Source: an uncultured virus (IMG/VR IMGVR_UViG_3300040735_000039) (taxonomy: Duplodnaviria > Heunggongvirae > Uroviricota > Caudoviricetes). From it: DNA of 64,000 bases. The stretch lies in IMG/VR virus record IMGVR_UViG_3300040735_000039; one strand, written 5' to 3'. The translations under genes and the position numbers were made by a program. The notes beneath the pieces were generated by a model. The model was not told where the DNA came from, searched no databases, and saw only the letters and a list, made by a program, of their open reading frames with translations. Below are positions 8,364 through 59,459 of this stretch, piece by piece. The first letter of the stretch is position 1, and the number at the start of each line of letters is the position of its first letter.

Positions 8364-9264
8364 ATCCTATCGCCCCCAGTCTTTTGCGGATTTCATCCTC
8401 CAACTCATGGGAACGTTTGAACATCTCGGATAGTTCACTTGTCAGCCGTGCCATCTTCTCCTCAAATGGCTCACCGTCGTCCTCCTGCTCCTCAATGCCC
8501 ACGTACCTCCCCGGTGTGAGTATGTAGTCCTGCTTTGCTATATCTTCCGTTGTAACAGCGGCGCAGAAACCCTTCACATCTTCGAGTGTTCCTTCATCGA
8601 AGGCCTCAAAGGTGGCAGCAATCTTAGATATGTCATCCGTGGTCATCTCACGTAAACGTCGATTGACCATCGTCCCCATCTTGCGGGCATCGATGAACAA
8701 CGTCTTGCCTTTCTGCTTTTTATTTCGGCTGATGAACCACAACGAAACTGGAATCTGGGTTGTGTAGAATAGCTGTGTAGGCATAGCAATAATACCTTCC
8801 ACAAGATCATCTTCAATTATTCTGCGACGGATATCTCCCTCACCGCCACTTTGAGATGAGAGTGATCCGTTCGCAAGGACCATACCGATTTTCCCGTTCG
8901 GCGACAGATGATGAATCATGTGCTGCAACCATGCAAAGTTCGCATTTCCTGAGGGTGGCAAACCATATTTCCAGCGCGGATCGTCATTAAGGGAGCCATC
9001 ATTCCAATCAGAAAGGTTGAACGGCGGATTCGCCAGGATGTAGTCTGCTTTTAATTGGGGATGCAGATCTTTGTGAAAAGTATCTGCATTGTATCCTCCA
9101 AGGTCTGCTTCAATACCATGAATAGCAAGGTTCATTAGCGCCATCTTACGGGTTGTGGGGTTGGAGTCTTGACCGAATACAGACAAGTTATTGATATTGC
9201 CTGAGTGATGCTTAACAAAGTCAGCAGATTGCACAAACATGCCACCAGAGCCGCAGCAAGGGTC
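8353..9264 (-). pseudogene. hsdM: 3' fragment of type I methyltransferase hsdM, interrupted by the prophage
   Basis: Reads GAC CCT TGC TGC GGC TCT GGT GGC ATG = DPCCGSGGMFVQS, then ANPPFN motif IV and LTPGRYVG; no in-frame ATG supplied by the phage end (in-frame TGA near 9352). Confidence 0.95.
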
Positions 9265-9290
9265 TATATAAATGCAGATTTTGATACAAT
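9263..9290. repeat. Left attachment junction: core TC (9263-9264) + phage arm TATATAAATGCAGATTTTGATACAAT
   Basis: Arm matches the reverse complement of 59432-59457 at 21 of 26 positions. Confidence 0.92.
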
Positions 9291-9292
9291 AG

Positions 9293-9330
9293 AAAAAGCC
9301 CTCCCCAGCCGAAAAATGGCTGAAAAGGGC
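9293..9330 (-). terminator. Intrinsic terminator facing out of the prophage toward hsdM'-hsdS
   Basis: Minus strand GCCCTTTTCAGCC-ATTTTTC-GGCTGGGGAGGGC-TTTTT (stem includes G-U pairs, then a U tract). Confidence 0.6.
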
Positions 9331-9528
9331 GCATAAACAGGGCTTCCGTGGTCAATTACTGACTTCAGAAGCCCTGTTTTACTTTATGGAATTGTCGGCG
9401 CTGCCGTTTCGGTCGGATGGCAACTTACCCCGCAAAAAAGGCGGCGAGGGAATAATTAAATTGTGTGGCAAAATTAAAAGGTGAGGCCAGCTCTCGCCCA
9501 ACCGAACAAAGTGTCAAATGCGCAATGT

Positions 9529-9564
9529 ATAAGTATTGACTTCTCAATACTTATGTGGTATTAT
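9529..9564 (+). promoter_or_regulatory. SigA-type promoter with an overlapping palindromic operator
   Basis: TTGACT(9536)-17 bp-TGnTATTAT(9559); perfect 11-bp inverted repeat ATAAGTATTGA-cttc-TCAATACTTAT covers the -35. Confidence 0.75.
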
Positions 9565-9589
9565 TGATGATGGAAGGCGGTGGATATAC

Positions 9590-9826
9590 ATGGCATTTAC
9601 TTATAAACCGTTGTGGAAGCTCCTCATTGATAAAGAAATGAGCAAAAAGAACCTTATGCAAGCAACAGGTATATCGAAATCGACAATGGATAAAATGGCC
9701 CGGTCAGAAACAGTATCGCTGGATGTTGTTGACCGTATATGTAATTACTTCGACTGTAAAATTGAAGATGTGATTGAGTACAGCAGGCCTAGAAATGAGG
9801 AAACACATGACCAAAGGATATTCTAA
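9590..9826 (+). CDS. Cro/C1-type HTH regulator (controller-like)
   Basis: MAFTYKPLWKLLIDKEMSKKNLMQATGISKSTMDKM...ICNYFDCKIEDVIE; overlaps the methyltransferase start. Confidence 0.88.
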   Translation: MAFTYKPLWKLLIDKEMSKKNLMQATGISKSTMDKMARSETVSLDVVDRICNYFDCKIEDVIEYSRPRNEETHDQRIF

Positions 9827-12170
9827 GGCGGCAGCTGGCACTTTTGCACTTAATAAGGGCGAAGCAATTCATCGGTGGTATTCGTATTTAGAGGGCTATT
9901 CTTCCTGCTTGATTGACGATGTTATCCGAGAAATCGGAGCGAAAGATATTCACGCTATTTATGACCCGTTTTGTGGCACTGGTACAACTTCGCTTGTTGC
10001 ATCAACATATGGTATTAAATCATATTACAGCGAAACCAACCCATTTATGCGAGAGGTTATCGAAGCCAAAACAAATTGCGTAAAAAGGCTACGCGATTCA
10101 GGTGTCGGCAGCTCACACCTCAAACAGTTCTTAAAAAACATCGAGAATTATAATATGAAATTGCGTCTTGAAGATGCGTCTTGGGATGGCTTTGAAAAAT
10201 ATTTTGAACCTGAAGTGTTATTCCAACTTCAAGACCTGCTCAATGAAATAAATAATATTTCTGATGATGATAGCCGCAAAATAGCCCTTGTCATCTTAGC
10301 CTCAATTACTGTACGAGCATCTAAAATGATAAGGCAGGGCGATTTGCGTTTTGCGAAGGAATCAGAAAAGAATGACAGCGATAGAGATGTAATACTTAAC
10401 TTCAGAAAAAAAATCGAAGATGCCATTGCGGATATCGATGGAGCAGATTGCGAAACTCACGCTGAGACTATATGTGTAAGTGATGATGCCAGAGACAGCA
10501 CACTTGAAAACATGATTGACTGCGTTATTACATCTCCACCATATTTGAATGGGACAAACTACATTCGAAACACCAAACTTGAATTGAAGCTATCGGGATT
10601 TGTAGTTTCTGAAAAAGACCTTCCAGCGTTTCATTCCAAAGGGATCATTGCCGGAATAAACAACGTGTCGAGGCGCACAATGGGATTTGAGGTCCCAGAT
10701 TGCGTTAAAGAATACATTTCCGAGTTGGAACCTGTTTCATATGATAAGCGAATACCCATTATGGTTGCTGGTTATTTTCATGACATGAGTCAAGTGATTT
10801 GCCGTTTGGCTCATGCGCTCAAAGATAACGGCTACTTTATTATGGATATTGGTGACTCGCAATTTGCAGGTGTTCACATACCGACGCACAAGATACTAAC
10901 TCAAATCTGTGAGGAGTATGGTTTTTGTCTCTACGATGAGGAAATTCTTAGGGAGCGTCGTTCAAAGAACGGAATGGTTCTATCACAAAGGTTACTAAAA
11001 TTTCGGTTGCATAAAGCAGCTAAGCCGAACGAGGTATTTCATGATGAGGCGGAATCATTCATTCAAAATATGCCCTACCACAAAGAACCATACTGCGGAA
11101 GAAACTGGGGACACGCATGGCATTCATTGTGTTCATATCATGGAAAATTAAAACCAGCCATTGCTCATTTTCTGGTCGAACAATTTACTAACGTTGGAGA
11201 CGTTGTTTTAGACCCTCTTTGTGGAGTCGGTACTATTCCTTTGGAGGCGTGTCTTCAAGGCCGTGTTGGTATTGGGAATGATTTGAGCGAGATGGCATTT
11301 ATTGTATCAAAAGCAAAACTTGAAAAGCCGTCGTTAGATGACGCTTTGCAGGTTGTGGCTAAGCTACAGAATTATATTGAAGCAAATGTTCAAAGTGAGA
11401 ATATTGATTCAGATATTGCAAAATATGAATTGTTTGGCTTTAACGGTAAAATATCTACTTATTTTCATGTCGACACATATCGTGAAATTTTATGTGCACG
11501 TAGGTACTTCCTGCCACGAATACAAGAAATCAGCGCTGCAGAATCGATGGTGTTTGCCTGCTTACTGCACGTATTGCATGGAAATCGCCCATATGCACTG
11601 TCTCGCAATTCTCACCCTCTTACTCCCTATGCCCCAAAAGGAGAGTTTGTATATAAAAACGTTATCGAGCATATCAAAGAGAAACTCATGTTATCGTATA
11701 AAAAGGGAGACTTTGAGCAATATATCGCCGGAAATGCAATTTGGGGCGATTATGAAACTCTTTCTCAAAAAGGGGTACTGGCAGATATCATAATATGTTC
11801 ACCTCCTTTTGCTGATTCAATACGCTTCTATATGCAAAACTGGATGAGACTCTGGCTATGTGGGTGGGAGCCGGAGGATTATAAAGATGCAGAGAATTTA
11901 TTTCTTGACCAAAAACAAAAGAAGAATTTTGATGTATATACATCATTCTTCGAAACTTGTGCTACCGTATTGAAGCCTCATGGAAAGGTAATCTTGCATC
12001 TTGGAAAAACCGATAAAATCGATATGGCTGAGGAACTATCTAAGCGAGCAGCTCCATACTTTGAAGAAATCTATCGTGGAAGCGAGGATGTTCAAACAGT
12101 TGAGAAACATGGGATAAAGGATAAAGGAGCCACAGTTGAGCACCAATACCTTTTTTTGATGAAGAAATAA
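9807..12170 (+). CDS. Tandem two-domain amino-DNA methyltransferase (probably N4-cytosine)
   Basis: Two motif I/IV sets: YDPFCGTGTT...ITSPPY and LDPLCGVGT...ICSPPF. Confidence 0.85.
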   Translation: MTKGYSKAAAGTFALNKGEAIHRWYSYLEGYSSCLIDDVIREIGAKDIHAIYDPFCGTGTTSLVASTYGIKSYYSETNPFMREVIEAKTNCVKRLRDSGVGSSHLKQFLKNIENYNMKLRLEDASWDGFEKYFEPEVLFQLQDLLNEINNISDDDSRKIALVILASITVRASKMIRQGDLRFAKESEKNDSDRDVILNFRKKIEDAIADIDGADCETHAETICVSDDARDSTLENMIDCVITSPPYLNGTNYIRNTKLELKLSGFVVSEKDLPAFHSKGIIAGINNVSRRTMGFEVPDCVKEYISELEPVSYDKRIPIMVAGYFHDMSQVICRLAHALKDNGYFIMDIGDSQFAGVHIPTHKILTQICEEYGFCLYDEEILRERRSKNGMVLSQRLLKFRLHKAAKPNEVFHDEAESFIQNMPYHKEPYCGRNWGHAWHSLCSYHGKLKPAIAHFLVEQFTNVGDVVLDPLCGVGTIPLEACLQGRVGIGNDLSEMAFIVSKAKLEKPSLDDALQVVAKLQNYIEANVQSENIDSDIAKYELFGFNGKISTYFHVDTYREILCARRYFLPRIQEISAAESMVFACLLHVLHGNRPYALSRNSHPLTPYAPKGEFVYKNVIEHIKEKLMLSYKKGDFEQYIAGNAIWGDYETLSQKGVLADIIICSPPFADSIRFYMQNWMRLWLCGWEPEDYKDAENLFLDQKQKKNFDVYTSFFETCATVLKPHGKVILHLGKTDKIDMAEELSKRAAPYFEEIYRGSEDVQTVEKHGIKDKGATVEHQYLFLMKK

Positions 12171-12210
12171 CATAAGGACAGGCTGACTAATCACAGCCTG
12201 TCCTTATGTT
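12169..12210. terminator. Hairpin between convergent genes (probable bidirectional terminator)
   Basis: Perfect 17-bp stem AACATAAGGACAGGCTG / CAGCCTGTCCTTATGTT with an 8-nt loop. Confidence 0.85.
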
Positions 12211-13697
12211 TATTCAATCGTTACCGATGTAGGGTAATGCCCAGTTTTTGTTTTATATTGCTCTGCAAGATCAACTTTTCCTGCAATAATTCGTTTCAAA
12301 GAATCATTGATTTTGTCCGATGTCCTAATTCCGTCTCTTACTTTTTGGTAATCAGCGTCCATAAGAAACTCATCATAAAACCATACAACATTCTCAATCA
12401 GCAGGTCTAACACTTCCTGATTAACAGCCTTTGTGCGAAGCTTCTCAAGGGATATACCTGTAATTTCGCTTAGCCTCTTTAGCTCGTCTGGGCTATAAAA
12501 GTCAACAGGAAAATGGTCGCTTTTCTGTGAATTATGGCTGCTACACAGACAGGTAGCTGATTCATCAAGCCTGTACAAATAGGCAAGTGGCATTGTGTGG
12601 TCTAATGCCATTTCGCCGAGCTCTATCTGTTTTGATGTCGGGCCGCATTTGAAGCAACGCTTATCAAACTTTTTCCATATATACTCGGAGAACTCCTTCT
12701 TTGTTCGATGTTCAAACTCGAAGTGAACGAGGTTGGTATGCAATAAATCGTTGACTAACACTTCAATTGCGCGTCGGCGCAAACCATCTTCTTTAAACTG
12801 TTGTGCGTTACGTTGTGGATTGAGCGGAGCATTTACAAAGAATTTCTTACACGCCTTGCACTCCAATTGATGGCCGTAGTAGGAGACAACTTTATTGTCT
12901 TCTATCCGTAGTCCTCTAAGATCGTCCGCACTCAATTCATCAATGTTTTGTATGGTGTACGCTCTGAAGGTTGAATGAACGCATGGCGCACGTTTCTTGC
13001 AATGAAGTGAAAAACTAAGGGTCTTCATCTCGTCATCCATATTGATTGGCAGATATCGACCACAGCGGTTACAGCTTTTTTGAACGACCCGGCGCCCTTT
13101 TGTAAGTGCCGTATCACTAACTAAGTATTCTCCGAACGGCAAAGCACTGTTCAAATAATATAGGTACGGGACGTGCATATATGTCTTTTGATAAAAACTC
13201 ACCGCACACGAAGTGTCAATAAAATCCTCTTTGCTGACGACGTCAAAATCGAATGAAATAAACTCTAATGCGTTGTAGGCAATACCGATTATTTCCATTG
13301 TTACGGTGACATCATAAATTCGAGAGTCTCTATTTATTGTTTGCTCTACATGAAAACCAACGTTACTCCAGCAGCCTTCTTCCATAACCTTCTTCTCAGA
13401 GGGCTGATGTTTATATTGCCGGCCTTCATATTGATATGACATGGTAAACTTTACTTCGGCTTTGCTCTGGGAATGAATGTATCCGCCGAAAGCAATAAGT
13501 GAGATTCCCTTCTCGAAAAGTTCAACAAGCTCTAACTCGTCGCGATGGAAAATAATGCTTTCTGTTCTACTGCTACTGATATGTTTTTCAGAATATACAA
13601 TACGGCATTCACCGCCGGTAGTATCTTCGCAAGTGTGATAACCGCTCTCACGCGTGGTTTCACGCCTACGGTATGTTCTCAAATCCTTTTGCGCCAT
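12210..13697 (-). CDS. Zn-binding HNH-type nuclease, putative restriction endonuclease
   Basis: CNRC, CKAC and CFKC pairs; ALDHTMPL...CLCSSHNSQKSD HNH-like motif; convergent with the methyltransferase. Confidence 0.65.
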   Translation of the reverse strand: MAQKDLRTYRRRETTRESGYHTCEDTTGGECRIVYSEKHISSSRTESIIFHRDELELVELFEKGISLIAFGGYIHSQSKAEVKFTMSYQYEGRQYKHQPSEKKVMEEGCWSNVGFHVEQTINRDSRIYDVTVTMEIIGIAYNALEFISFDFDVVSKEDFIDTSCAVSFYQKTYMHVPYLYYLNSALPFGEYLVSDTALTKGRRVVQKSCNRCGRYLPINMDDEMKTLSFSLHCKKRAPCVHSTFRAYTIQNIDELSADDLRGLRIEDNKVVSYYGHQLECKACKKFFVNAPLNPQRNAQQFKEDGLRRRAIEVLVNDLLHTNLVHFEFEHRTKKEFSEYIWKKFDKRCFKCGPTSKQIELGEMALDHTMPLAYLYRLDESATCLCSSHNSQKSDHFPVDFYSPDELKRLSEITGISLEKLRTKAVNQEVLDLLIENVVWFYDEFLMDADYQKVRDGIRTSDKINDSLKRIIAGKVDLAEQYKTKTGHYPTSVTIE

Positions 13698-13751
13698 AAT
13701 ATCCCTCCTCATGTAAAAAACAATTTATTCGGCTAAAGTAGGCAACCTTTG

Positions 13752-14411
13752 TTAAACACCAAGCCGATGCCTAATATCGTTTAACCACTCACCTTTATAC
13801 TTAAAATACTTTGGACCCGCTATGGCATACTTTTTTCCTGACAATAGTTTTGCCAATGCGGTAAGTGACATGGTTTCCCCGTTGTACTCGACATTTCGGT
13901 CGTCAACAACTATCGCTATGATTTCAGGATTACTACAATACTCAATTTTCTCACCAACTGGAATATTGCACTTGGCGAAAGAGAAATTAGTAGCACGTTC
14001 GGTGCTTTCTGTATCTATCTCTTTTGCTATTTCCTCAGCTTGCATTTCGTCCGTGCTGGGCTCCGCCAGCATTAACTTATCTGCGCAACCATGTATTTCA
14101 GCAATGGCTTCCAGAATGGAATATGCATCTTCTGGAGTCATCGCATAAAACTCTCGTATACGTTGCTTGCCGTTAAAACTTTCGACAGATCGAAGGTTGG
14201 GATTCAGCTTATCAATTATTGCGTGTATCTTTAAGTCGGACAATCGAGAACTCACCTCGTATGTAGCATAAACACGAAAAGCAAATGGAATACACTCACT
14301 ACGGTTGAGTTGATTTAACCGTTTATTTATATCATCCGCATATCCAATCTTTACATACTCTGGAAAACTCGGATTTGTTAGTATGTATATTACGCCATTT
14401 TTCTCTGTCAT
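13752..14411 (-). CDS. GIY-YIG (T5orf172-like) nuclease with a C-terminal RAMA/DUF4357-like domain
   Basis: GVIYILTNPSFPEYVKIGYA...RLNQL...REFY; C-terminal VEYNGETMSLTALAK. Confidence 0.8.
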   Translation of the reverse strand: MTEKNGVIYILTNPSFPEYVKIGYADDINKRLNQLNRSECIPFAFRVYATYEVSSRLSDLKIHAIIDKLNPNLRSVESFNGKQRIREFYAMTPEDAYSILEAIAEIHGCADKLMLAEPSTDEMQAEEIAKEIDTESTERATNFSFAKCNIPVGEKIEYCSNPEIIAIVVDDRNVEYNGETMSLTALAKLLSGKKYAIAGPKYFKYKGEWLNDIRHRLGV

Positions 14412-14488
14412 ACTTACCTCCACAATTTTCATAAGAGAGATACAGCCTGCCGATGTGTGTTCGGCAGGTTTTTTCTCTGGCTATTGCT

Positions 14489-15262
14489 TTACTCTGTAAT
14501 CGTACCTTCTTTGATGTGGTACGCAGTACCGCGCTCGTTGCAAAATGCAATCACGGCTTGTGCTTGTTCATTATAGAACGCCTTGTGATTACGAAAGGCA
14601 GTGACCTCTTTGCTGTAGTTTGTGCGACCGAAGATAATCTTGTCGGCAAACGATACCGCTTCGAGTAATGTAGCAATGTCCTGTTCTACAAGATTTGGTG
14701 TTGGGTATGGCTCCATGCTAATCCACGTGCTGCAACCTGCTTCGTGAAGCACTCTCAATGCAGCAAGCCGATCGGCGTATGCGGCAGCACCCGGCTCCAT
14801 GCGTGATCGGTAGTTCTCGTCGAGCGAAACAAGCGTAATGCCATATTCATTCTCGTGTGAAAGCTCCGCCAACTCTGCTGGAAGGATACCTTTCGTGAGG
14901 ATGCTGCACTTGATCCCGGCAGCGTTGAGCTTCCGAATGGCAGCAATACTCATATCGGCTATTTCGGGGTAGCCGCGCATAAACGGGTCTGTAGAGAAGC
15001 ACAATTGAACCGATTTGATCTTATCCTTGAGCTTTGGTATTTCTTTATCCAGTAGTTCGAGTGTGTTTGAAACGAGATATGGTTCTAACCATTCTTCATA
15101 GGACTTCACTTGACCGAATCGTTTTTTCATCATAAAAGCGTAGCAGGGGTATTTACATCCATGAGCACAGCCTTGAATGTGGTTCATCGTATAATCACCG
15201 TACTCTACGCCGGTCTTGTAGAGCATAGTTTTTCTTTCTATGTAACCCTTAACCTTCTTCAT
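14489..15262 (-). CDS. Radical SAM protein (spore photoproduct lyase-like)
   Basis: GCAHGCKYPCYA cluster motif, STDPF, ILTKG, SMEPY. Confidence 0.85.
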   Translation of the reverse strand: MKKVKGYIERKTMLYKTGVEYGDYTMNHIQGCAHGCKYPCYAFMMKKRFGQVKSYEEWLEPYLVSNTLELLDKEIPKLKDKIKSVQLCFSTDPFMRGYPEIADMSIAAIRKLNAAGIKCSILTKGILPAELAELSHENEYGITLVSLDENYRSRMEPGAAAYADRLAALRVLHEAGCSTWISMEPYPTPNLVEQDIATLLEAVSFADKIIFGRTNYSKEVTAFRNHKAFYNEQAQAVIAFCNERGTAYHIKEGTITE

Positions 15263-16371
15263 TTTGCACCCCTACGAGCAAAGCTTATTTTGCCTCGCGA
15301 CACCGAAGCATTATAGTTTAGCTTGAGCTCGTTCTTAATTTCGTTTCTGAACCCATCCGATGGGAATATCGGGTGCTCATCAAGAACCGCCCATAAATCA
15401 TCAAGAGGAACATCAGTCTGTCCATCAAAGAGATTCTGCAGATACTCCACAATATCTTTAACATAATAGCAGAACTCATCTGTCGGAGTACATACAAAGC
15501 CTCTCCCCTCGAAGTCGAGCATGAGCTGGTTTTCACTGCCATGGGTATTTTTAGCTGATGACTTGCCTCCAAAAGTCTGCCAAGCCGATTGCTTATATAG
15601 CTTAAATCCTTTGATGTTGCTTGTGCAATGGAGCAAGTTATACACGATAGCATTTTTCTCATTGAAAAACGGAAAAGCCGCAATATAGTACTTGCGTGAA
15701 GAATTGCGGCGTAGCAGCTTTATTATCGTTTCGATACGCTTTTCGTATGCGACCTTATCGCTACCATACGGGATTAGATTTTCCAATTCCGTAAGATATG
15801 TACGCTCATACTTGCTTCTGGCCTCATCTTTTTTAACCATTTTAACGGCTCTCATGGAATCCGAAACCATGTGATTTAGAATAACCTCGCTCCAATTGTT
15901 GATAAATGGCATGATTGCATTCCAGTCAATAGTGGCTTCAAACGGGTCGTAAACGAGAAGGTAGTGCCTGCTGCTTGACATCGTTTGTCCTAAACGCTTA
16001 GCCAGTTCATTCCCGTCCTCGGTCGTAATATGAAAATGAAAGTTTCGGCTTTCATTCGGCATCAAACCCTTTAAATGCTCAGTTCTTGCATCACACAGGT
16101 CGCTAAAATACAGGTCAATTTGCTTGTTAGGATACTGCCCTGCAACATTTCGGAGGTACTTTGCCACACGAACAGGGGTTCCGAACACCGGTTTACCACC
16201 ATCATCAACGTATTCTCCGCTGTTCGACATACAATCAATAAAAACAAGCCCTGAGCAGTATTGATTTTGAAGCAATTTATGTGCCCATGCCTCAACATAT
16301 TTTTCGATTAATTCGAATTTCTTAATCGTATGTGGATTTGCATGACCGATTATATCTTCACCGCTATTCAC
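15259..16371 (-). CDS. tcmP: Three-Cys-motif partner protein (TcmP-like, methyltransferase fold)
   Basis: HTIKKFELIEKYVEAW, FIDCMSNSGEY...GTP, LLVYDPF; coupled to the radical SAM gene; GTG start after AAGGAGG. Confidence 0.8.
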   Translation of the reverse strand: MNSGEDIIGHANPHTIKKFELIEKYVEAWAHKLLQNQYCSGLVFIDCMSNSGEYVDDGGKPVFGTPVRVAKYLRNVAGQYPNKQIDLYFSDLCDARTEHLKGLMPNESRNFHFHITTEDGNELAKRLGQTMSSSRHYLLVYDPFEATIDWNAIMPFINNWSEVILNHMVSDSMRAVKMVKKDEARSKYERTYLTELENLIPYGSDKVAYEKRIETIIKLLRRNSSRKYYIAAFPFFNEKNAIVYNLLHCTSNIKGFKLYKQSAWQTFGGKSSAKNTHGSENQLMLDFEGRGFVCTPTDEFCYYVKDIVEYLQNLFDGQTDVPLDDLWAVLDEHPIFPSDGFRNEIKNELKLNYNASVSRGKISFARRGAK

Positions 16372-16585
16372 TACTATCTTCCTCCTTTGGTACAAGGTCC
16401 ATTATGTCGCCAATATTGCAATCCAGCGCTTTGCAAATTTTCATAAGCACTTCCATGCTTACAGTTTCCCCCTTGGAGAGCTTAGTAACAGAGGTCCAAC
16501 TGATGCCTGCGGCAACCTGCAGGTCCTTTTTCTTCATATCTTTATCTATCAGTACTTTCCATAACTTTTTGTAACTGACGTCCAT
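16364..16585 (-). CDS. Cro/C1-type HTH regulator
   Basis: MDVSYKKLWKVLIDKDMKKKDLQVAAGISWTSVTKL...ICKALDCNIGDIMD. Confidence 0.9.
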   Translation of the reverse strand: MDVSYKKLWKVLIDKDMKKKDLQVAAGISWTSVTKLSKGETVSMEVLMKICKALDCNIGDIMDLVPKEEDSSE

Positions 16586-16637
16586 AGTGAGCTCCTTTCG
16601 CATTCATTCAAAGCCCGTGCAAAGTCGAGATGTGTAT

Positions 16638-16736
16638 ATTATAGCACAGAACTGTGTAAGTTACAATAGTTTATCTCCGAAAACGCTGGAATTTGCACCG
16701 ACATATATTGAAATTTCTCCGAATATGTGCTATAAT
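16638..16736. promoter_or_regulatory. Divergent SigA-type promoters
   Basis: Minus: TTGTAA-17-TGcTATAAT (16666-16638); plus: TTGAAA-17-TGcTATAAT (16708-16736); two TCTCCGAA boxes at 16674 and 16716. Confidence 0.75.
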
Positions 16737-16774
16737 AAAACACAAGTCACCTAAGGAGAAAAGGAGGGCTCATT

Positions 16775-18712: not shown

Positions 18713-18719
18713 AAATAAT

Positions 18720-19626: not shown

Positions 19627-19633
19627 TCACATG

Positions 19634-19680
19634 GTTTTGCCCTCTGTCAAAGAGATTTTGCAGAGGGCAAAATTATTTTT
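19634..19680 (+). terminator. Intrinsic terminator
   Basis: TTTTGCCCTCTG...CAGAGGGCAAAA followed by a T-rich tract. Confidence 0.75.
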
Positions 19681-49921: not shown

Positions 49922-49935
49922 GGAGGGAAAATTTC

Positions 49936-51450: not shown

Positions 51451-51454
51451 TTTC

Positions 51455-52804
51455 ATGCTCCTCTCATTTTCTTATGCCGCTACTCTTGGCAGCGGACACA
51501 AGCCGCAGGTGGTGCATATGCCGGACAACGGTTTTCGCATCATCTATGTTAACGACAACGGTTTGGTCAACGCGCTTGTGACCTTCCCTTCGCTCGGTCT
51601 GTACGGAAATCTATCGTGGAAAAGCAAGGGCAGAATGTCGCCGGATGAAAGCATCTCCTATCCGTCGCTCAAAAAAGTGGCGCATTACGGCGCATACGGC
51701 TTTTGGAGTGCGGCGAGTGTGGACGGCATCACCATCGACCACAAATTTGTGATGTTTATGCTGCCGACGGATATTTCCGAAACACTCCTTGACGGCAGCA
51801 TCAGCTACTCCAAGGACAGCGCCGTTTCCAGCGCGTCCTTCAATTTTGCTAATATCAACGGCTATCTGCTGCGGCGGTATCGCTCTCTGGTATCGCCTAA
51901 CGCAAAAATCGAACTGTACCTCGCGCTCGGCTCGTCTGATGAAATCTCGCTGGGCAAGTGGTATATCGACCGCGTTTCCACCGCCATTCCCGGCAACAAC
52001 ATTTCAGTCACAACGCGCAACGCCATCGGCAAGCTACTCAAGGAACAGACCTTTGACGAGCAGACCGCCTTTGCAGAAGCCACGCTAACCGACAATCTGA
52101 AAGCGATTCTCGCCTATAGCGGCGTGGAGGACTATTTCGTTGGTGATACCGGACGAAGCTGGGGACTTTCCTTTGAGCCAAGCAACACGCTGCTGGAAGG
52201 CATTGAGGACATTATCCGGCTGTTCGGCGGCTGGAAAATCGGCGAAACCTCCGACGGTGTTATCGGTATCGGCAGCGTTAGCGACGCCCGCTTTGAACAG
52301 CCGTCCACCTATCATTTTGAACGTGACAAAAACTGCTGGAGCTACTCGACCGAATACTGCGACGAAGAAACCTATTCTCGTGTCTGTGTTTCCTGCAAAG
52401 AGCCGGAAAACACGCTTTATGTTGATTTGCCGCCGCACAAGCTCTGGCCGATGGCGACGCATCGAACGCTGTATGTGACGGTGCCGGACGGTACGAGCTA
52501 CACGGAACTACAGTCTTACGCGAACAATCTCGCGGACAGTATTGCCATTACCGGCAGAACAGAAACCTTTGCAGGACGCTTTACGCCGCAGATGATTATC
52601 GGCGACGCCATTGAAATGACCGCCGACGGCGAAACGGAAAATATCGGCGTAGTTACCTCCGTGCGGCACACGCTGGGACGGAAAGGCTTCTTCACCGAAT
52701 TTACCGTGGACAGCGGCGGTCGGCGCGGAAAGCCCACGCTGAAGGACTATGTTTCGCAGATATCCGGCAATAAGACGTCGAAATCTGTTATTACAAACGA
52801 ATGA
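51455..52804 (+). CDS. Tail protein (baseplate hub-like)
   Basis: ATG 51455 after AGGAG; FTPQMIIGD...VTSVRHTLGRKGFFTEFTV. Confidence 0.7.
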   Translation: MLLSFSYAATLGSGHKPQVVHMPDNGFRIIYVNDNGLVNALVTFPSLGLYGNLSWKSKGRMSPDESISYPSLKKVAHYGAYGFWSAASVDGITIDHKFVMFMLPTDISETLLDGSISYSKDSAVSSASFNFANINGYLLRRYRSLVSPNAKIELYLALGSSDEISLGKWYIDRVSTAIPGNNISVTTRNAIGKLLKEQTFDEQTAFAEATLTDNLKAILAYSGVEDYFVGDTGRSWGLSFEPSNTLLEGIEDIIRLFGGWKIGETSDGVIGIGSVSDARFEQPSTYHFERDKNCWSYSTEYCDEETYSRVCVSCKEPENTLYVDLPPHKLWPMATHRTLYVTVPDGTSYTELQSYANNLADSIAITGRTETFAGRFTPQMIIGDAIEMTADGETENIGVVTSVRHTLGRKGFFTEFTVDSGGRRGKPTLKDYVSQISGNKTSKSVITNE

Positions 52805-52818
52805 GGAGGATTATCATC

Positions 52819-53232
52819 ATGAAAGAAATCTGGAACTGGATTCAAATTGTATTTGCCGCCATTGGAGGCGGCATCGGCTGGTTTCTCGGAGGAGCGGACG
52901 GCTTCCTTTACGCGCTCATCGCCTTTGTGGTCATCGACTACATCACAGGCGTCATGTGCGCGATTGTAGACAAAAAGCTCTCCAGCGAAGTCGGTTTCAA
53001 GGGTATCTGTAAAAAGGTGCTCGTTTTTATTTTGGTAGGCGTAGGCAACATTATCGACGTTCAGGTGCTGGGACAGGCTGGAGTGCTTCGCACGGCGGTT
53101 ATTTTCTTCTACCTGTCCAACGAGGGCGTGTCGCTGCTTGAAAACGCCGGACATCTCGGCTTGCCCATCCCGGCAAAGCTGAAAGCGGTGCTGGAACAGC
53201 TCCACGACCGCAGCGAAAAGGAGGACAAGTAA
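52819..53232 (+). CDS. Phage holin (family 4-like)
   Basis: TM segments; DYITG, LSSEVGFKGICKK, NEGVSLLENAG.LGLPIP. Confidence 0.92.
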   Translation: MKEIWNWIQIVFAAIGGGIGWFLGGADGFLYALIAFVVIDYITGVMCAIVDKKLSSEVGFKGICKKVLVFILVGVGNIIDVQVLGQAGVLRTAVIFFYLSNEGVSLLENAGHLGLPIPAKLKAVLEQLHDRSEKEDK

Positions 53233-53946
53233 ATGAATCTGCATAAATTTTTACTCACGAACAACGACTGCTACAAGTCTGGCAAAACCATGACGCCGAA
53301 GGGCATTATGGTACATTCGACCGGTGCAAACAATCCGAATCTGAAACGCTATGTTGGACCCAACGACGGACTGCTCGGCGTCAATCAGTACGGAAACCAC
53401 TGGAATCAGCACATGGACAGGCAGGTGTGCGTCCATGCCTTTATCGGCAAGCTGAAGGACGGTAGCATTGCCATCTACCAGACGCTCCCGTGGAACATGG
53501 TCGGCTGGCACAGCGGCTCCGGCTCAAAAGGTAACGCCAACTATCTCGGCTATATTGGCTTTGAAATTTGCGAGGACGGTTTGACCGATGCCGCGTATTT
53601 CAATAAGGTCTACACCGAAGCCGTGGAGCTTTGCGTTTACCTCTGTAAGCAGTACAACCTTACAGAGAAGAACATCATCTGCCACAGTGAGGGCCACACG
53701 CTCGGCATCGCGTCCAATCACGGCGACGTCATGCACTGGTTTCCGAAGCACGGCAAGAACATGGATACCTTCCGTGCGGCGGTCAAGGCTGGACTGGCGG
53801 CAGATGCTCCCGTAACGCCTGCCACGCCGAAGAAGTATTACCGTGTCCAGCTCGGTGCATTTTCCGTTAAGGCGAACGCTGACGCCATGCTGGGAAAGGT
53901 CAAAGCGGCTGGCTTCACCGACGCCTTTGTGAAGTACAGCGAGTAA
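53233..53946 (+). CDS. Endolysin: N-acetylmuramoyl-L-alanine amidase + SPOR domain
   Basis: IMVHSTG, VHAFIG, GFEICED, ICHSEG; YRVQLGAFSVKANA. Confidence 0.92.
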   Translation: MNLHKFLLTNNDCYKSGKTMTPKGIMVHSTGANNPNLKRYVGPNDGLLGVNQYGNHWNQHMDRQVCVHAFIGKLKDGSIAIYQTLPWNMVGWHSGSGSKGNANYLGYIGFEICEDGLTDAAYFNKVYTEAVELCVYLCKQYNLTEKNIICHSEGHTLGIASNHGDVMHWFPKHGKNMDTFRAAVKAGLAADAPVTPATPKKYYRVQLGAFSVKANADAMLGKVKAAGFTDAFVKYSE

Positions 53947-54006
53947 AGAGTACGCCGTAGCAGCGCGAACGTCCATAAACCAGCGGTCAAGTTGTTGACT
54001 TACAGT

Positions 54007-54049
54007 TAATGCCCATCGGAGAATTTTCTCTGGTGGGCATTATTTTTTT
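54007..54049 (+). terminator. Intrinsic terminator after the lysis module
   Basis: TAATGCCCATCGGAGA-ATTT-TCTCTGGTGGGCATTA-TTTTTTT. Confidence 0.85.
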
Positions 54050-54056
54050 GCTTATT

Positions 54057-54100
54057 TTTTGTACGGCGGGCTCCTTTTTTTCCAGTGGGTAGTGAGGACA
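54057..54100 (+). promoter_or_regulatory. Class-1 phage promoter-like motif, copy 3
   Basis: TTTGTACGgcgggctcctttttttCCAGTGGGTAgtgaggaca. Confidence 0.75.
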
Positions 54101-54126
54101 AGGGTTCTCGGACTGGAGGAAATCTC

Positions 54127-54549
54127 ATGACAAATGAGCAAAGAGAACACATCACTACCATGCGACTGGGCGGCATCGGCTATACAGCCATTGCTAAAGC
54201 GGTCGGGCTGTCAAAGGACAGCGTGAAGGCCTATTGCCGCACTCATGGCCTTGCCGGGATAAAAGCACAAAGCAATACTCGAATCTCACCGACGCAAAGA
54301 TTTTGCTTGAATTGTGGAAAGTCGCTGGTACAGCTACCGCATCGGAAAGCTGCGAAGTTCTGCTGTGGCGAATGCCGTCAGGTATGGTGGAATGCGCACC
54401 CAGAGCAGGTCAATAAAAAGGCACTCTACTCCTTCACCTGCGTTTGCTGTGGTAAGCCCTTTACAGCATACGGCAATTCGTCACGAAAATATTGTTCTCA
54501 TGATTGTTATATTGCAGATCGTTTCAAAGGCGGTGAGCAGCATGACTGA
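54127..54549 (+). CDS. HTH + zinc-finger protein
   Basis: GYTAIAKAVGLSKDSVKAYCR; CLNCG, FCCGEC, CVCCG, YCSHDC. Confidence 0.8.
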   Translation: MTNEQREHITTMRLGGIGYTAIAKAVGLSKDSVKAYCRTHGLAGIKAQSNTRISPTQRFCLNCGKSLVQLPHRKAAKFCCGECRQVWWNAHPEQVNKKALYSFTCVCCGKPFTAYGNSSRKYCSHDCYIADRFKGGEQHD

Positions 54550-54718
54550 AGGCCAGTTCACCGCCGAAAAGCAATATCAAACTTCGCTGCTTCTGGCAAA
54601 AGAGCTTCTTGAAAAAGGGCTTTTGACGCGGGAGGAATACACCGTAATTAATACAATTCTGCTTCAAAAATACGGACCACCGTTGGGCACATTATTCTCC
54701 GAAATTGCCTTGCTATAA
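54542..54718 (+). CDS. SHOCT-like small protein
   Basis: AKELLEKGLLTREEY...LLQKY. Confidence 0.75.
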   Translation: MTEGQFTAEKQYQTSLLLAKELLEKGLLTREEYTVINTILLQKYGPPLGTLFSEIALL

Positions 54719-54743
54719 TCCGCTTTTAGAGTGATATATAGTA
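54703..54743 (+). promoter_or_regulatory. Class-2 promoter-like motif, copy 3, directly before the recombinases
   Basis: AATTGCCTTGCTATaatccgcTTTTAGAGTGAT. Confidence 0.72.
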
Positions 54744-54763
54744 GTGGAAAGGAGTGATTTTTC

Positions 54764-56533
54764 TTGAAAAATGTAACAAAAATCGAGCCGACCGTACCGC
54801 AAATGCCGGAGCGCAAAAAGGTCGCCGCCTACGCAAGAGTATCAATGGAGTCCGAGCGGCTGCAGCATTCCTTGTCGGCGCAGGTCAGCTATTACAGCGA
54901 GTTTATTCAAAAGCACACCGATTGGCAGTATGTCGGTGTTTATGCGGATAATGGCATCAGCGGTACCGGAACAGCCAAACGCGATGAGTTCCAGCATATG
55001 CTCGACGATTGCGAAGCGGGTAAAATCGATATCATTCTCACAAAGTCCATTTCCCGTTTTGCAAGAAATACGGTTGACCTTTTGAAAACTGTCCGGCACC
55101 TGAAGGAGCTCTGCATTTCCGTCCGCTTTGAGAAGGAAAACATCGACTCGCTTTCGGAGGACGGGGAATTGATGCTCACATTGCTTGGCTCCTTCGCACA
55201 GGAGGAGAGCCGCAGTATTTCGGATAATGTCAAATGGGGTACGGTCAAGCGCTTTCAGCAAGGCATACCGAATGGGCATTTTCCTATCTACGGCTATCGG
55301 TGGCAGGGCGAAACGCTGGTCATTGAGCCAGAGGAAGCGAAAATTGTGCGGTTGATTTACGACAACTTCCTGAAGGGTCTATCGGCCGAGACCACAGAAA
55401 AACAGCTTGAAGCGATGGGCGTAAAATCCTATAAGGGGATGCATTTTGGCAACACGTCAATCCGGCAGATTCTCCGGAACATCACCTATACCGGAAACCT
55501 GCTGTTCCAGAAAGAGTATACCGTTGACCCTATCAGTAAGAAAAGCCGTATCAATCGCGGCGAGTTGCCGCAATACTGGGTCGAGAACACACATGAAGCC
55601 ATCATCGACATGGAGACCTATAACGCAGTCCAAGCGGAAGTGGCGCGGCGGCGGGAGCTTGGCGTGTTTGCAAACTGGACGATTAACACGACCTGCTTCA
55701 CAAGTAAAATCGTCTGTGAAGCCTGCGGCAGGCCATTTCACCGTTCGACGCGTAGTCGGACAAACGGGAAATTCAAAGTGTGGGTATGCGCCAATCGCAA
55801 AGAAGGAAAGCCCCACGACTGTAAGGTCAGCGACCTACCGGAGTACATTCTGGAGCGTGTTGCAGCAGAGGCGCTTGGGCTGGACGAGTTTGACGCAGAT
55901 ACTTTTGCCGAGCAAATTGAAAAGATCGTGGTGCCGTCAGCGAATGTGCTCGTGTTCCATTTTTACGATGGGCGCATTATCTCCAAGGAGTGGGAATCCA
56001 CTGCTAAAAAGGATTGGTGGACACCTGAACGACGGCGGCTTTGGGGCGAACGACACAAGCGCAAAGACACCAATCCGAATAAGAATACCTACTACGAGTT
56101 CACCGGCTTTATTAAGTGCGGTCGGTGCGGCTCAAATTATCGCTGCCAATCCACCACCTTGAAGGACGGGACGAAAACACGCTCATGGTACTGCACAGCG
56201 CCGTCCGGCACCTGCGATAAGATTTCGATCAAGGATGATACCATGAAAACGCTTGTGACTGATGTGCTCGGTTTGGCAGAGTACGATGAAGCCGTGATGG
56301 ACGAGCAAATGGAATACGCTACCATCCTTGATAACACGGTCACCTTCCATTTCCGCGACGGGCATGAAGTATCCAGAGAATTTCATGACAAGCGTCACGG
56401 CACGAAGTGGACCGAGGAGCGCAGAGTCAAACAATCTCAAGCCATACGGGATAGCTGGACGGAGGAACGCCGAGCTGCCGTAGGAGAAAGGATGAAGCAG
56501 ATAAGGAGCGAAAAGAAATGGCCAAAACGGTAA
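54764..56533 (+). CDS. Large serine recombinase 1 (duplicated Zn-ribbon region)
   Basis: AAYARVS, KSISRFARN, recombinase domain, CEACG...C and CGRCG...C modules. Confidence 0.93.
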   Translation: MKNVTKIEPTVPQMPERKKVAAYARVSMESERLQHSLSAQVSYYSEFIQKHTDWQYVGVYADNGISGTGTAKRDEFQHMLDDCEAGKIDIILTKSISRFARNTVDLLKTVRHLKELCISVRFEKENIDSLSEDGELMLTLLGSFAQEESRSISDNVKWGTVKRFQQGIPNGHFPIYGYRWQGETLVIEPEEAKIVRLIYDNFLKGLSAETTEKQLEAMGVKSYKGMHFGNTSIRQILRNITYTGNLLFQKEYTVDPISKKSRINRGELPQYWVENTHEAIIDMETYNAVQAEVARRRELGVFANWTINTTCFTSKIVCEACGRPFHRSTRSRTNGKFKVWVCANRKEGKPHDCKVSDLPEYILERVAAEALGLDEFDADTFAEQIEKIVVPSANVLVFHFYDGRIISKEWESTAKKDWWTPERRRLWGERHKRKDTNPNKNTYYEFTGFIKCGRCGSNYRCQSTTLKDGTKTRSWYCTAPSGTCDKISIKDDTMKTLVTDVLGLAEYDEAVMDEQMEYATILDNTVTFHFRDGHEVSREFHDKRHGTKWTEERRVKQSQAIRDSWTEERRAAVGERMKQIRSEKKWPKR

Positions 56534-58092
56534 CCACAATTCCAGCGACACTGACACGCTTCACCGCAGCGCCGCTGAACGAAGTCAAAAAACGCCGCAC
56601 AGCCGGTTATGCCCGCGTTTCCACCGACAGCGAGGAGCAGCAGACCAGCTATGAGGCGCAGGTTGATTATTACACCAACTACATCAAAAGTCGTGAGGAC
56701 TGGGAGTTCGTGGAGGTCTATACCGATGAAGGTATCAGTGCCACGAACACGAAACACCGCGAAGGCTTCAAACGTATGATAGCCGATGCCCTCGCCGGAA
56801 AAATTGACCTTATTGTTACAAAATCGGTCAGCCGTTTCGCCCGCAACACCGTAGACAGCCTGACAACCGTTCGCAAGCTCAAAGAAAAAGGTATCGAGAT
56901 ATTTTTCGAGAAGGAGAACATCTGGACGCTCGACAGCAAGGGCGAACTGCTCATTACGATAATGTCCTCACTGGCGCAGGAGGAATCCCGCTCCATTTCT
57001 GAAAACTGTACATGGGGACAAAGAAAACGATTCGCGGACGGAAAGGTCACTGTGCCGTTCAATCGGTTTCTCGGCTACGACCGAGGCGAGGATGGCAATC
57101 TGGTCGTTAATCCGAAACAAGCAGCCACAGTCAGACGCATTTACAGTATGTTCCTACAGGGCATGACACCCTTCGGCATTGCTTCCAAGCTGACCGCTGA
57201 CGGTGTACTCTCGCCGGGCGGCAAAGAGCGCTGGAACGCCGGTGCAGTGCGGAGCATCCTCACGAATGAGAAATATCGCGGCGATGCGCTGCTACAAAAG
57301 AGCTATACCGTGGATTTTCTCACAAAAAAGAAAAAGCCCAACGAGGGCGAGATACCACAATATTATGTTGAGAATAATCATCAAGCGATTATCCAGCCTG
57401 ATGTTTTCGATATGGTGCAACGCGAGTTGGCGCGACGCGGGCAGAACCGCAGCCATCACAGCGGCGTTCACCTTTTCTCCGGCAAGATAAAATGCGGACA
57501 GTGTGGAAACTGGTACGGTTCAAAGGTCTGGCACTCCACCGACAAATACCGCTGCACGATATGGCAGTGCAATCATAAGTTCGGCGGCGACGAAAAATGC
57601 GGTACTCCGCATCTTACGGAGGAGGATATTCAGCGTTACTACCTATCGGCGGTCAACAAGCTGCTCACGGACAGGGACGACATCATCAGCACATTCGAGC
57701 TTGCCAAGAGCGCAGCCTTCGACACAACGGCGCTGGCTACAGAGCGGGATGAGCTGCAAAGTGAACTGTTGGTGGTCTCCGAGCTCCTGCAGCAGTGCAT
57801 TCAGGAAAACGCCCACGTCGCGCTCGACCAAACTGAATACCAGAAACGCTACGACGGGCTGACCGAGCGGTTCAACAAAGCCAAAGCTCGACTGGACACG
57901 GTCACGGCGACCATAAGCGACAAGCAGGCTCGTCAAGCGACAATAGAAGCCTTCCTCGACGAGCTCAGGAGGTTGGACATCGTCTCCGAGTTTCAGCCCG
58001 CGCTCTGGTACAGCCTCATGGATTTCATGACGGTTTACAGCAAGGACGATGTACGCGTCACCTTCAAGGACGGAACGGAGATACGGGCATAA
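56518..58092 (+). CDS. Large serine recombinase 2
   Basis: AGYARVST, KSVSRFARN, CGQCG Zn ribbon, coiled coil. Confidence 0.95.
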   Translation: MAKTVTTIPATLTRFTAAPLNEVKKRRTAGYARVSTDSEEQQTSYEAQVDYYTNYIKSREDWEFVEVYTDEGISATNTKHREGFKRMIADALAGKIDLIVTKSVSRFARNTVDSLTTVRKLKEKGIEIFFEKENIWTLDSKGELLITIMSSLAQEESRSISENCTWGQRKRFADGKVTVPFNRFLGYDRGEDGNLVVNPKQAATVRRIYSMFLQGMTPFGIASKLTADGVLSPGGKERWNAGAVRSILTNEKYRGDALLQKSYTVDFLTKKKKPNEGEIPQYYVENNHQAIIQPDVFDMVQRELARRGQNRSHHSGVHLFSGKIKCGQCGNWYGSKVWHSTDKYRCTIWQCNHKFGGDEKCGTPHLTEEDIQRYYLSAVNKLLTDRDDIISTFELAKSAAFDTTALATERDELQSELLVVSELLQQCIQENAHVALDQTEYQKRYDGLTERFNKAKARLDTVTATISDKQARQATIEAFLDELRRLDIVSEFQPALWYSLMDFMTVYSKDDVRVTFKDGTEIRA

Positions 58093-58096
58093 TCTT

Positions 58097-58143
58097 AAAA
58101 AACAACGCCTCTCAACCATTGTGGCTGGGAGGCGCTTCTTCGT
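58097..58143. terminator. Hairpin between convergent genes
   Basis: CGCCTCTCAACCA-TTG-TGGCTGGGAGGCG with flanking A/T tracts. Confidence 0.6.
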
Positions 58144-58146
58144 GTA

Positions 58147-59319
58147 TCAAATCCATAGCCTGCTACGTTCGTTACCCACAAACTCAAGCGCAACCGTTGT
58201 TCTTGATTTATGTAAAAGGATTTTTGAGCCCTTTTCTTTTATATCAGCATCACCTTTGTAATAGTACCACAGCAGATGATCAAAATCTTTTCTCGTTATG
58301 GCGTACCCTATGCGACATTCTACTTCACGCCTTATACGGTCAATCAGATTTCGATAGCCGAGATAATCACCGCGATTTCGCTGGCCAAACTCCTTTTCAA
58401 TTTTGCTCTGCTTCCTTGCCATGTGATTTTCACCGATGTACACCCATGCGTAATACGGAAGAATCTCACGCAGGATTTTATCATAAATACTATATCCGTC
58501 GGTTTCTAAAAGATAGCGTGACAAATATGTACAGTATTTTGATGCAAAGCTGAATGTATATCGACCATGTATTGCACCAGCAATCTGATTGACCAAACCG
58601 GCATCTTCGTTTTTAAGGCGCTCGTAAAAATCTGGCAGGTCACAAATAAATTGCGCCGTGATTTCTCTCCCGCGATTATCTCCCTGTTTCACACCTGATG
58701 AGGCTTGGTGTGTGGAGTTCTGAATATCGATTCTTTCAACGATACCGAGAATTACTTCATAATCTCGCGTGTACGGATGGTTTCTTATATAGTTGTAGGT
58801 TGACTCTTTGTTTTCTGGGTCCATATCCGAACGGTAATTCGAGTCGTTTTCAATGATGAAATTAATGCGATCTACATTCCCAGAGGTCAGCGCAAGCAGC
58901 CCATTCTTGTCAACATCAAACTTGTACGGACTTTCCTGTAAGATAAAAGGGTCTTGTGAGTTAACCACTGCCGAAACAGCCGGACTTGAATCCTGTTTGG
59001 ACTCCGAGAATTCGATTCCACTGGTTTTAAGAAAGCGCCTGAAGCGACGCAGATGTGCCATATATCCACTGAGATTTGCTTCGGCATTTCCACTGGACTG
59101 CTGCACCAACAGTTCAAGAAGCGTAGATTTTCCGAGAACTTCGAAGTTATCAGAGAGAACTATCTGCCAGAAAGCCTCCTGCCCTTTTTTTCTCCAAATG
59201 TAAAAGGCATCAGTAGATGATGTCATGACCGTATTCTGTGATAGATTTTGTGTGTTGAGGTATTTCTTATATGCTGCTCGAATCTCGTCGAGCGGACGGT
59301 TTTTTATGTCATCAACCAC
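58147..59319 (-). CDS. Prophage accessory protein, possibly HhH-type DNA glycosylase-like
   Basis: 390 aa; FSFASKYC...YSIYDK...RKDFDHLLW pattern; RBS AGGAGG. Confidence 0.6.
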   Translation of the reverse strand: MVDDIKNRPLDEIRAAYKKYLNTQNLSQNTVMTSSTDAFYIWRKKGQEAFWQIVLSDNFEVLGKSTLLELLVQQSSGNAEANLSGYMAHLRRFRRFLKTSGIEFSESKQDSSPAVSAVVNSQDPFILQESPYKFDVDKNGLLALTSGNVDRINFIIENDSNYRSDMDPENKESTYNYIRNHPYTRDYEVILGIVERIDIQNSTHQASSGVKQGDNRGREITAQFICDLPDFYERLKNEDAGLVNQIAGAIHGRYTFSFASKYCTYLSRYLLETDGYSIYDKILREILPYYAWVYIGENHMARKQSKIEKEFGQRNRGDYLGYRNLIDRIRREVECRIGYAITRKDFDHLLWYYYKGDADIKEKGSKILLHKSRTTVALEFVGNERSRLWI

Positions 59320-59431
59320 TAATATTGCCTCCTAAATACCAAAATCGCCGGTCAACACCGGCAAATGCACCGCTTACCCTGCAAGACCCCATTTTACCCC
59401 GCAAGAGGCAGGAAGTCACGGAAATAATTAA

Positions 59432-59459
59432 ATTGTATCAATCTCTGCATGAACATATC
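59432..59459. repeat. Right attachment junction: phage arm ATTGTATCAATCTCTGCATGAACATA + core TC (59458-59459)
   Basis: Inverted partner of 9265-9290; hsdM homology stops at the core. Confidence 0.92.

Follow-up and report, generated by a model that had tools for sequence, protein, structure and literature searches.

Tandem serine recombinases of a Heliusvirales-like prophage and their probable landing sites in conserved motifs of DNA methyltransferase genes

The Streptococcus prophages Phi1207.3, Phi10394.4 and Phi-m46.1 share an orf55-orf56-orf57 module, for which cooperation of two recombinases has been proposed (PMC4260502). In serine integrases that act singly, a coiled coil controls site selection and direction (PMC3783163), and a survey of large serine recombinases (LSRs) reported no enrichment in or near anti-phage genes (PMC10083194). 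Here we describe a module of the same kind in the window, that is, the whole stretch of 64,000 nucleotides that was analysed, taken from the uncultured virus record IMGVR_UViG_3300040735_000039 of IMG/VR. The window holds a prophage that divides a host hsdM gene. We consider it probable that this prophage integrates by serine recombination at a GA dinucleotide, that its attP is fixed while attB is relaxed among DNA methyltransferase genes, that a motif read as DNA together with selection sets the target, and that the split enzyme stops the defence it belongs to.

At both junctions (9263-9264 and 59458-59459) the + strand reads TC, which is GA on the hsdM strand. The arms that follow inside the prophage (9265-9290 and 59432-59457) form an inverted repeat with agreement at 21 of 26 positions, perfect over the outer 10; by composition such a match is expected 5e-4 times in the window, where the runner-up reaches 18/26. 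The attB halves lack this symmetry (6/30 matching). Arms and core together make an attP of 54 bp, as for other large serine recombinases (about 50 bp). This GA-core attP had been proposed in a first-pass annotation, and it exists in nature: IMG/VR locus L001, which shares 98.4% identity with the final 1459 bp at the phage end, passes through the core and fits the predicted other arm at 13 of 14 bases before the contig ends. Relatives hold 17 further distinct arm-GA-arm sites, and these attP forms indicate that excision does occur. Regulated gene-intervening elements (skin, gin and SPbeta) offer a comparison, in that they leave by programmed excision, which repairs the gene without lysis. Strand exchange is at GA, its geometry being observed and its chemistry following from the recombinase family. 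As an observation on the side, the inner part of the window's recombinase-side arm (59448-59457) is closer to the consensus of the opposite arm than to that of its own side.

The attB reconstructed in the same annotation was likewise supported. Rejoining 60050-59460 and 9264-8353 by script gave an HsdM open frame of 500 amino acids (aa) that aligned gap-free with the 8 best of 120 intact homologues (best 92.8%, P0010), and all 120 have Y followed by DPCCG at the insertion point. The prophage splits the Pfam domain N6_Mtase, whose positions 2-53 fall to one part of the gene and 60-311 to the other. No in-frame start that could rescue the 3′ part of hsdM was found in the phage arm; the listed frame begins at 9240, beyond the motif. 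The virus record nearest to the window contains neither junction, so that the exact unoccupied allele did not turn up, and among the contigs of 4 public runs none bridges the junction or covers the hsdM part.

To see where relatives land, loci were collected by similarity to the two prophage recombinases, LSR1 and LSR2 (the best 80 of 430 and the best 80 of 561 LSR2 matches), and by arm patterns, the latter including an arm-selected metagenome scan that supplied at least 119 loci. A first blind scan for inverted repeats mostly gave terminators; arm-plus-core events were found with a matrix scan of 373 loci and the window. The 197 distinct events comprised 18 attP sites, 3 weak second hits, 1 flankless event, 10 insertions in serine recombinase genes (a sister clade; 4 assigned by Pfam, 6 by motif) and 165 other junctions. 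DNA methyltransferase-type genes received 145 of these 165, with 121 assigned by profile and 24 by motif or similarity; the remaining 20 lie elsewhere. The profile-assigned targets are type I or type I-like (70), type III Mod (32), type IIG (12) and PglX of bacteriophage exclusion (BREX) systems (7). These assignments come from Pfam scans of 158 fragments no shorter than 30 aa, 65 of which were also put through PADLOC; the window's fragment counts by its own Pfam match and L293 by likeness to L273, and four matches are weak (E 1e-4 to 4e-3). Of the motif-assigned junctions, 11 end in G-N/K-I/V-L, 8 in FL or FF, and 5 are short. Far halves of the first group start with EPSMG or EPSCG, and 2 of 3 gave a weak methyltransferase profile match. 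Among the matches listed for the arm-selected metagenome subset, where target choice cannot bias selection, 71 were assigned by profile, 14 by motif and 13 to other genes (n = 98). The 160 LSR2-selected loci included 75 with the arm, 22 with the other arm reversed and 63 with neither, 19 of which have at least 3 kb of downstream sequence.

In 134 of 151 junctions an open frame of 60 codons runs in phase up to the core (the other phases account for 6 and 3). It is the Asp/Glu codon of D-P-x-(C/Y)-(G/N)-(S/T)-G that is cut, and type I fragments stop at about N6_Mtase position 50. Individual 26-bp arms were found, in identical form, at up to 5 target classes, and target class does not track the LSR1 and LSR2 trees. 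By motif, L002 (LSR1 99% identical, LSR2 96%) and L003 (94% for both) sit in a PglX-like and an Eco57I-like gene, not in hsdM. Of 4 public runs with a near-identical phage end, 3 show it passing into other DNA at the core or next to it: X8 and X11 part from the window at 59459, X1, which has a variant arm, at 59452, and in X3 the end stops at 59459. The loose ends, read by hand, encode FRNPDTTFL, EILHLTVM and GKVDCIYI, three different contexts. Many hosts therefore offer a landing site, and the methyltransferase is cut in two. The clade's attP appears fixed (arms of about 26 bp, outer motif TTGTATCAA, GA core) and its attB relaxed. The first-pass expectation that many hsdM homologues could serve as landing sites is borne out by the type I junctions, but hsdM as such is not the target, since Mod, IIG, PglX and other genes are used as well; the same arms across target classes point to a system of relaxed specificity and not to a clean att pair.

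In L301 (389-1126 of a 1246-bp contig) two opposite junctions lie in what are apparently two adjacent methyltransferase genes, that is, side-by-side insertions. L374, L391, L392 and L416 have far junctions whose first 27 bases are motif-like and differ, after which the sequence is common. In L433 and L375 one element end is joined to another, which suggests tandem insertions. The sister clade (L058-L062, L184-L200, L378-L431) has near-identical arms; its insertions lie at D-D/E-G within serine recombinase genes that belong to other elements. Its targets include LSR2-like and DUF4368-bearing recombinases, and in many members of this clade the LSR2-side site is reversed.

What the targets have in common as DNA lies mainly 3′ of the core. 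The consensus after GA, from 21 methyltransferase sites among 60 distinct far halves, is N-CC-N-NS-N-TRY-RR-N-WS-N-GG, and the 5′ halves of 142 sites hold little information (A at -9, T at -5). The 3′ consensus fits the codons of DPACGSG and DPPYNTG equally. DPACGSG occurs in type I, type IIG and PglX enzymes and DPPYNTG in type III Mod, both after a beta strand; we take the former to be the S-adenosylmethionine (SAM)-binding motif I and the latter the catalytic motif IV. The profile positions of the target motifs agree with two different places in the fold: far halves start with DPACG, DPPYN or EPSMG and match N6_Mtase from 52, N6_N4_Mtase from 7 and MmeI_Mtase from 25. Traces persist outside methyltransferase genes: ranked against the GA sites of the window, 14 of 24 far junctions lie beyond the 99th percentile. 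Downstream of 21 of 25 off-target sites there is no match to a methyltransferase. Across 5 host genomes there were 25 occurrences of the motif, against 2 for the control. Four of the 25 are far junctions of resident prophages that complete target genes, 11 are intact DNA methyltransferase-like genes, 3 are RlmL-like and 7 other; these assignments were made by reading, and 6 of them were checked. RNA methyltransferases with fitting motifs are almost unused, a single RlmL-like junction (L320) having been found. The phage's own double type II-like methyltransferase (9774-12170) contains the second-best target-like site of the window, at 9963 on the + strand, a possible self-target.

Several observations weigh against so simple a picture. 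The junctions were counted as distinct sequences, which are not proven independent events, and four off-target sites are mutually related, some of them perhaps decayed remnants. In 61 genomes of one family the excess was less marked, the 3′ motif occurring 146 times against 60 for the reversed control, and 30 sampled matches comprised 3 DNA methyltransferases (MmeI-like), 4 PF03602 methyltransferases, 1 DUF6094 methyltransferase and 22 others. The PF03602 genes fit both half-site matrices, yet none of the 165 junctions resembles one. Moreover, the matrices were trained on methyltransferase genes and mix protein conservation with recombinase preference, so that a fit to them does not prove which bases the protein touches. 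The 3′ motif alone was rejected as a sufficient explanation by the excess of 146 over 60 combined with the 3 of 30 sampled matches; adding the 5′ matrix keeps the 3 MmeI-like and 4 PF03602 genes. PF03602 is presumably the RsmD family, and the gene that follows it looks, by its N-terminal motif, like coaD in the 2 loci checked. With such a neighbour, selection or a finer motif may explain the missing PF03602 junctions. A degenerate DNA motif, read mainly 3′ of the core and sharpened by selection, remains the likeliest basis of target choice.

Table 1. Features of the prophage, its junctions and the divided host locus, in window coordinates
Feature	Position	Strand	Evidence or remark
Host hsdR, 1004-aa open frame	342..3356	-	
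Host hsdS, parted from the hsdM start by the prophage	7098..8363	-	Methylase_S
Host hsdM, 3′ part	8353..9264	-	N6_Mtase profile 60-311, E 1e-81
attB 3′ half-site, codons D-P-C-C-G-S-G, most of the target information	9245..9262	-	Top of 8396 window GA sites by 3′ matrix
GA crossover core (2 bp), far junction; first two bases of the Asp codon in DPCCGSGG	9263..9264	-	
Phage attP arm, far end	9265..9290	-	21/26 inverted match to opposite arm; near-identical arm after core in L001
Prophage, 50,195 bp	9265..59459	+	Replication, packaging, head, tail and lysis genes
Hairpin resembling a terminator, directed at the hsdM 3′ part and hsdS from just within the phage end	9298..9330	-	Consensus match only; 2 found vs 0.4 expected
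Helix-turn-helix (HTH), Cys-rich (zinc-finger-like) protein, first module gene	54127..54549	+	No Pfam or PADLOC match
58-aa SHOCT_2 protein, candidate directionality factor or cofactor	54542..54718	+	PF20612
LSR1, 589 aa, with a YARVS-bearing catalytic domain, a recombinase domain and two zinc-ribbon domains; long coiled coil absent	54764..56533	+	
LSR2, 524 aa, with a YARVS-bearing catalytic domain, a recombinase domain and a single zinc ribbon that has a long coiled coil	56518..58092	+	
390-aa cargo gene between LSR2 and the arm, no known family	58147..59319	-	No Pfam or PADLOC match; 98.7% in L001
Phage attP arm, recombinase side; outer motif TTGTATCAA	59432..59457	+	
GA crossover core (2 bp), recombinase-side junction	59458..59459	-	Contigs of other runs diverge from the window exactly here
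Host hsdM, 5′ part, 197 codons before the core	59460..60050	-	HsdM_N and N6_Mtase profile 2-53

The recombination module comprises four genes (Table 1). LSR1 and LSR2 both matched PF00239, PF07508 and PF13408 in the Pfam scan and both carry the catalytic serine motif YARVS, so the first-pass identification of serine recombinases stands; the same scan gave no match to DUF4368 (PF14287) in either protein. LSR1 adjoins LSR2 in all 169 paired loci, and the two small genes lie upstream in 127 of the 132 with 900 bp of upstream sequence. Among 140 distinct pairs, Y-x-R-x-S is kept in every LSR2 copy and in every LSR1 copy with its start in the frame read. Judged by these motifs, both recombinases are catalytically intact. 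LSR2 is constant in length (495-528 aa, nearly always 522-527), and complete LSR1 copies range from 441 to 632 aa with 1-3 zinc-ribbon motifs. In predicted models (mean predicted local distance difference test scores of 70 and 73, respectively), LSR1 has two tandem zinc domains and only short helices, with no long coiled coil, and LSR2 has one zinc domain with a long coiled coil (helices 404-433 and 438-485).

A recombinase without a coiled coil hints at divided roles, a prospect that, from sequence comparison, we regard as about evenly balanced. Between the methyltransferase-targeting and the recombinase-targeting groups, whose arms are similar, identity of the recombinase domain falls from 0.64 to 0.39 in LSR1 and from 0.74 to 0.66 in LSR2; against Phi1207.3 it is 0.36 and 0.52. 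The larger drop of LSR1 across the target switch fits a model in which LSR2 works on attP and LSR1 on attB. This pattern rests on few target switches, and it is weakened by the fact that the LSR1 recombinase domain goes down to 38% identity inside the methyltransferase group. Trees do not single out LSR1, since in the branches listed the recombinase-targeting group splits off in both proteins (FastTree without regard to support values; from the 140 distinct pairs, the 62 for which a target class was available and the start of LSR1 was complete). LSR2 might instead integrate alone, as a homotetramer with a relaxed attB, and leave LSR1 and the small proteins to excision or regulation. Its constant length and canonical build would suit this, as would the Bacillus gin element, in which the tandem girAB was dispensable and a separate recombinase did the work (PMC5595907). 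Such a division nevertheless seems somewhat doubtful to us in view of the unbroken conservation of the LSR1 catalytic motif and of its place beside LSR2, of the dissimilarity between attB and attP half-sites, and of the uneven loss of identity just described. A fuller version, in which a two-protein integrase has one partner on attP and the other reading the motif DNA, serves as a reversible counter-defence across classes and can swap targets through one partner, is in our opinion unlikely.

In the integration model that we favour, the recombinases would read the motif as DNA, that is, the codons of D/E-P-x-(C/Y)-(G/N)-(S/T)-G, and selection would remove insertions at costly matches. With less confidence, we suppose that the two recombinases cooperate, LSR2 engaging the attP arms while LSR1 engages the target. 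A split subunit would leave the defence complex unassembled, so that restriction and modification would both stop, and excision would restore the methyltransferase gene. In type I systems M2S1 methylates and R2M2S1 restricts (PMC12829572). As M is needed for both activities, a split hsdM should abolish both. The same loss is expected in type III, type IIG and BREX systems when the methyltransferase is split.

What the phage gains from this is less clear. It is almost an even question whether methyltransferase genes are a neutral safe harbour, in which case the motif would be used simply for being conserved, for being dispensable and for its frequency in mobile defence islands, and the lost restriction would be a side effect. 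An integrated phage gains little by silencing restriction and this one itself encodes three methyltransferases; recombinase genes, comEC or another gene serve as targets in sister clades whose arms are the same; and such targets have been argued to minimise host cost (PMC4701971). Against it stand the 145 of 165 junctions in DNA methyltransferase-type genes and the near absence of fitting RNA methyltransferases. The two accounts differ in purpose and not in mechanism.

The mechanism itself has two other challengers. Nearly random integration at GA, with selection alone leaving the methyltransferase insertions, could draw on the 20 non-methyltransferase junctions and on the low information of the 5′ half-sites; we find it very unlikely, as one codon of one motif is hit and GA sites elsewhere in these long genes are spared, a regularity visible both in the N6_Mtase stop position and in the phase of the frames. 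Least credible of all is strict specificity for hsdM of one subfamily. Type I is the largest class (70/165) and serine-integrase triplets have been described as hsdM-specific (PMC4701971), but recombinases 94-99% identical to those of the window lie in other classes, and L002, L003 and the runs X1, X8 and X11 contradict it.

The element itself is a temperate siphovirus of Firmicutes resembling Candidatus (Ca.) Heliusvirales. Its G+C content is above that of its flanks, and it encodes DNA polymerase A, an exonuclease, a single-stranded DNA-binding protein, a primase, an SNF2 helicase, three DNA methyltransferases and a SAM synthetase as well as terminase, portal, Clp protease, capsid, tail, holin and amidase genes. 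TerL is 83-87% identical to that of Ca. Heliusvirales reference phages, with NatCom_991 at 86.5% (tblastn, 957 bits; a measure of similarity, with no tree). Membership of Ca. Heliusvirales is defined by nine marker genes; using Pfam equivalents in place of the authors' hidden Markov models, we found TerL, portal, Clp protease, capsid, DNA polymerase, helicase, DUF2800 nuclease and single-stranded DNA-binding protein. Near-identical phage ends occur in 14 runs from 7 studies of manure, landfill, sludge, wastewater and bioreactor samples. A cargo region (12210-18712) holds candidate defence genes, namely PDC-S57 (E 4e-102), a radical SAM gene with a PDC-M30A-like partner, an HTH protein resembling capP, and a protein of 500 aa that matches no known family. 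In L472 (3210-10350), NatCom_23091 shows two facing recombinase modules with an endolysin on each side, perhaps two phages end to end.

On the host side, hsdS shares the region 4015-8363 with a tyrosine recombinase (5227-6219) and with incomplete copies of itself, which come with inverted repeats, one of 105 nt at 4017/7731 and another of 75 nt at 4644/7092. From this layout the region looks like an hsdS shufflon within the system split by the prophage. Upstream of hsdM (60740-63884) lie an HTH_38 protein, an M78 peptidase and an HTH_3 repressor; the host restriction locus may itself sit in a mobile element.

As to novelty, the suggestion that this is a new integrase and att pair needs qualifying: Phi1207.3 has the same GA core and outer arm motif and also uses tandem recombinases (PMC4260502). 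The att pair is a new member of a known module, and what is new is the targeting of methyltransferases across classes. In the literature searched (mostly titles and the starts of abstracts, with few subscription journals), we found no description of a recombinase clade that targets DNA methyltransferases across classes. Use as a tool would probably need two recombinases and perhaps four proteins.

The landing site in many hosts is the codons of a conserved enzyme motif as opposed to a single gene. Since the targets are modifying subunits of several anti-phage systems, lysogeny may open the host to foreign DNA and change its methylome; if the model is true, integration would reversibly turn off the type I, III, IIG or BREX defence of whichever host is entered. 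The large survey did not see this (PMC10083194). The lineage is widespread in gut and digester Firmicutes, where split methyltransferases may be misread as dead pseudogenes. Natural attB variants and the sister clades also bear on why some elements need two serine recombinases and on whether swapping one of them would alter the target.

Compared with canonical single serine integrases (Bxb1, phiC31, A118), which have one preferred site, the window's clade behaves otherwise; the zinc-domain coiled coil is present in the LSR2 model, with no long one in the LSR1 model. CcrA and CcrB of SCCmec, compared by description only, are likewise tandem large serine recombinases on one element, but they use a single chromosomal site and are not from a phage. 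Streptococcal integrative and conjugative elements with serine-integrase triplets in hsdM, mutT or traG (10750-RD.2) share several recombinases, direct repeats of 2-8 bp and a disrupted hsdM; they differ in being conjugative, in having three recombinases and in being described as single-gene-specific (PMC4701971). Multi-targeting LSRs resemble the clade in their relaxed attB (PMC10083194); in the window's clade, too, close relatives hit more than 3 divergent target gene clusters, so that it behaves as a multi-targeting LSR does. Within that set, cluster9635 (89 proteins, more than 3 target genes, phage) has a representative that by eye resembles LSR2, and its attP shares the outer arm motif; the attB shown there has, by eye, no methyltransferase motif (PMC10083194). 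A further difference is that 63% of the multi-targeting clade carry DUF4368 (PMC10083194), to which LSR1 and LSR2 have no Pfam match. The terms N6_Mtase, HsdM and methylase are absent from those supplements of PMC10083194 that were searched.

Two further systems belong among the closest. The Ca. Heliusvirales reference NatCom_3357 has the same module, with LSR2 at 77% and an arm joined to a fragment ending in KLAELTFL, like the MmeI-type junctions; a common cluster of that group is named "DNA invertase", and the parts of the paper examined give no integration site (PMC11283538). The Phi1207.3-type module likewise consists of a small open reading frame and two overlapping serine recombinases at the phage end, with a GA target that is duplicated on integration (PMC4260502). 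LSR2 is 52% identical to orf57, and both phage ends there bear the TTGTATCAA arm motif. On the other hand, orf56 has 412 aa with one zinc ribbon and LSR1 has 589 aa with two, and Phi1207.3 uses a single site in comEC and Phi-m46.1 a single site in rum (PMC4260502), whereas the window's clade uses many classes of methyltransferase.

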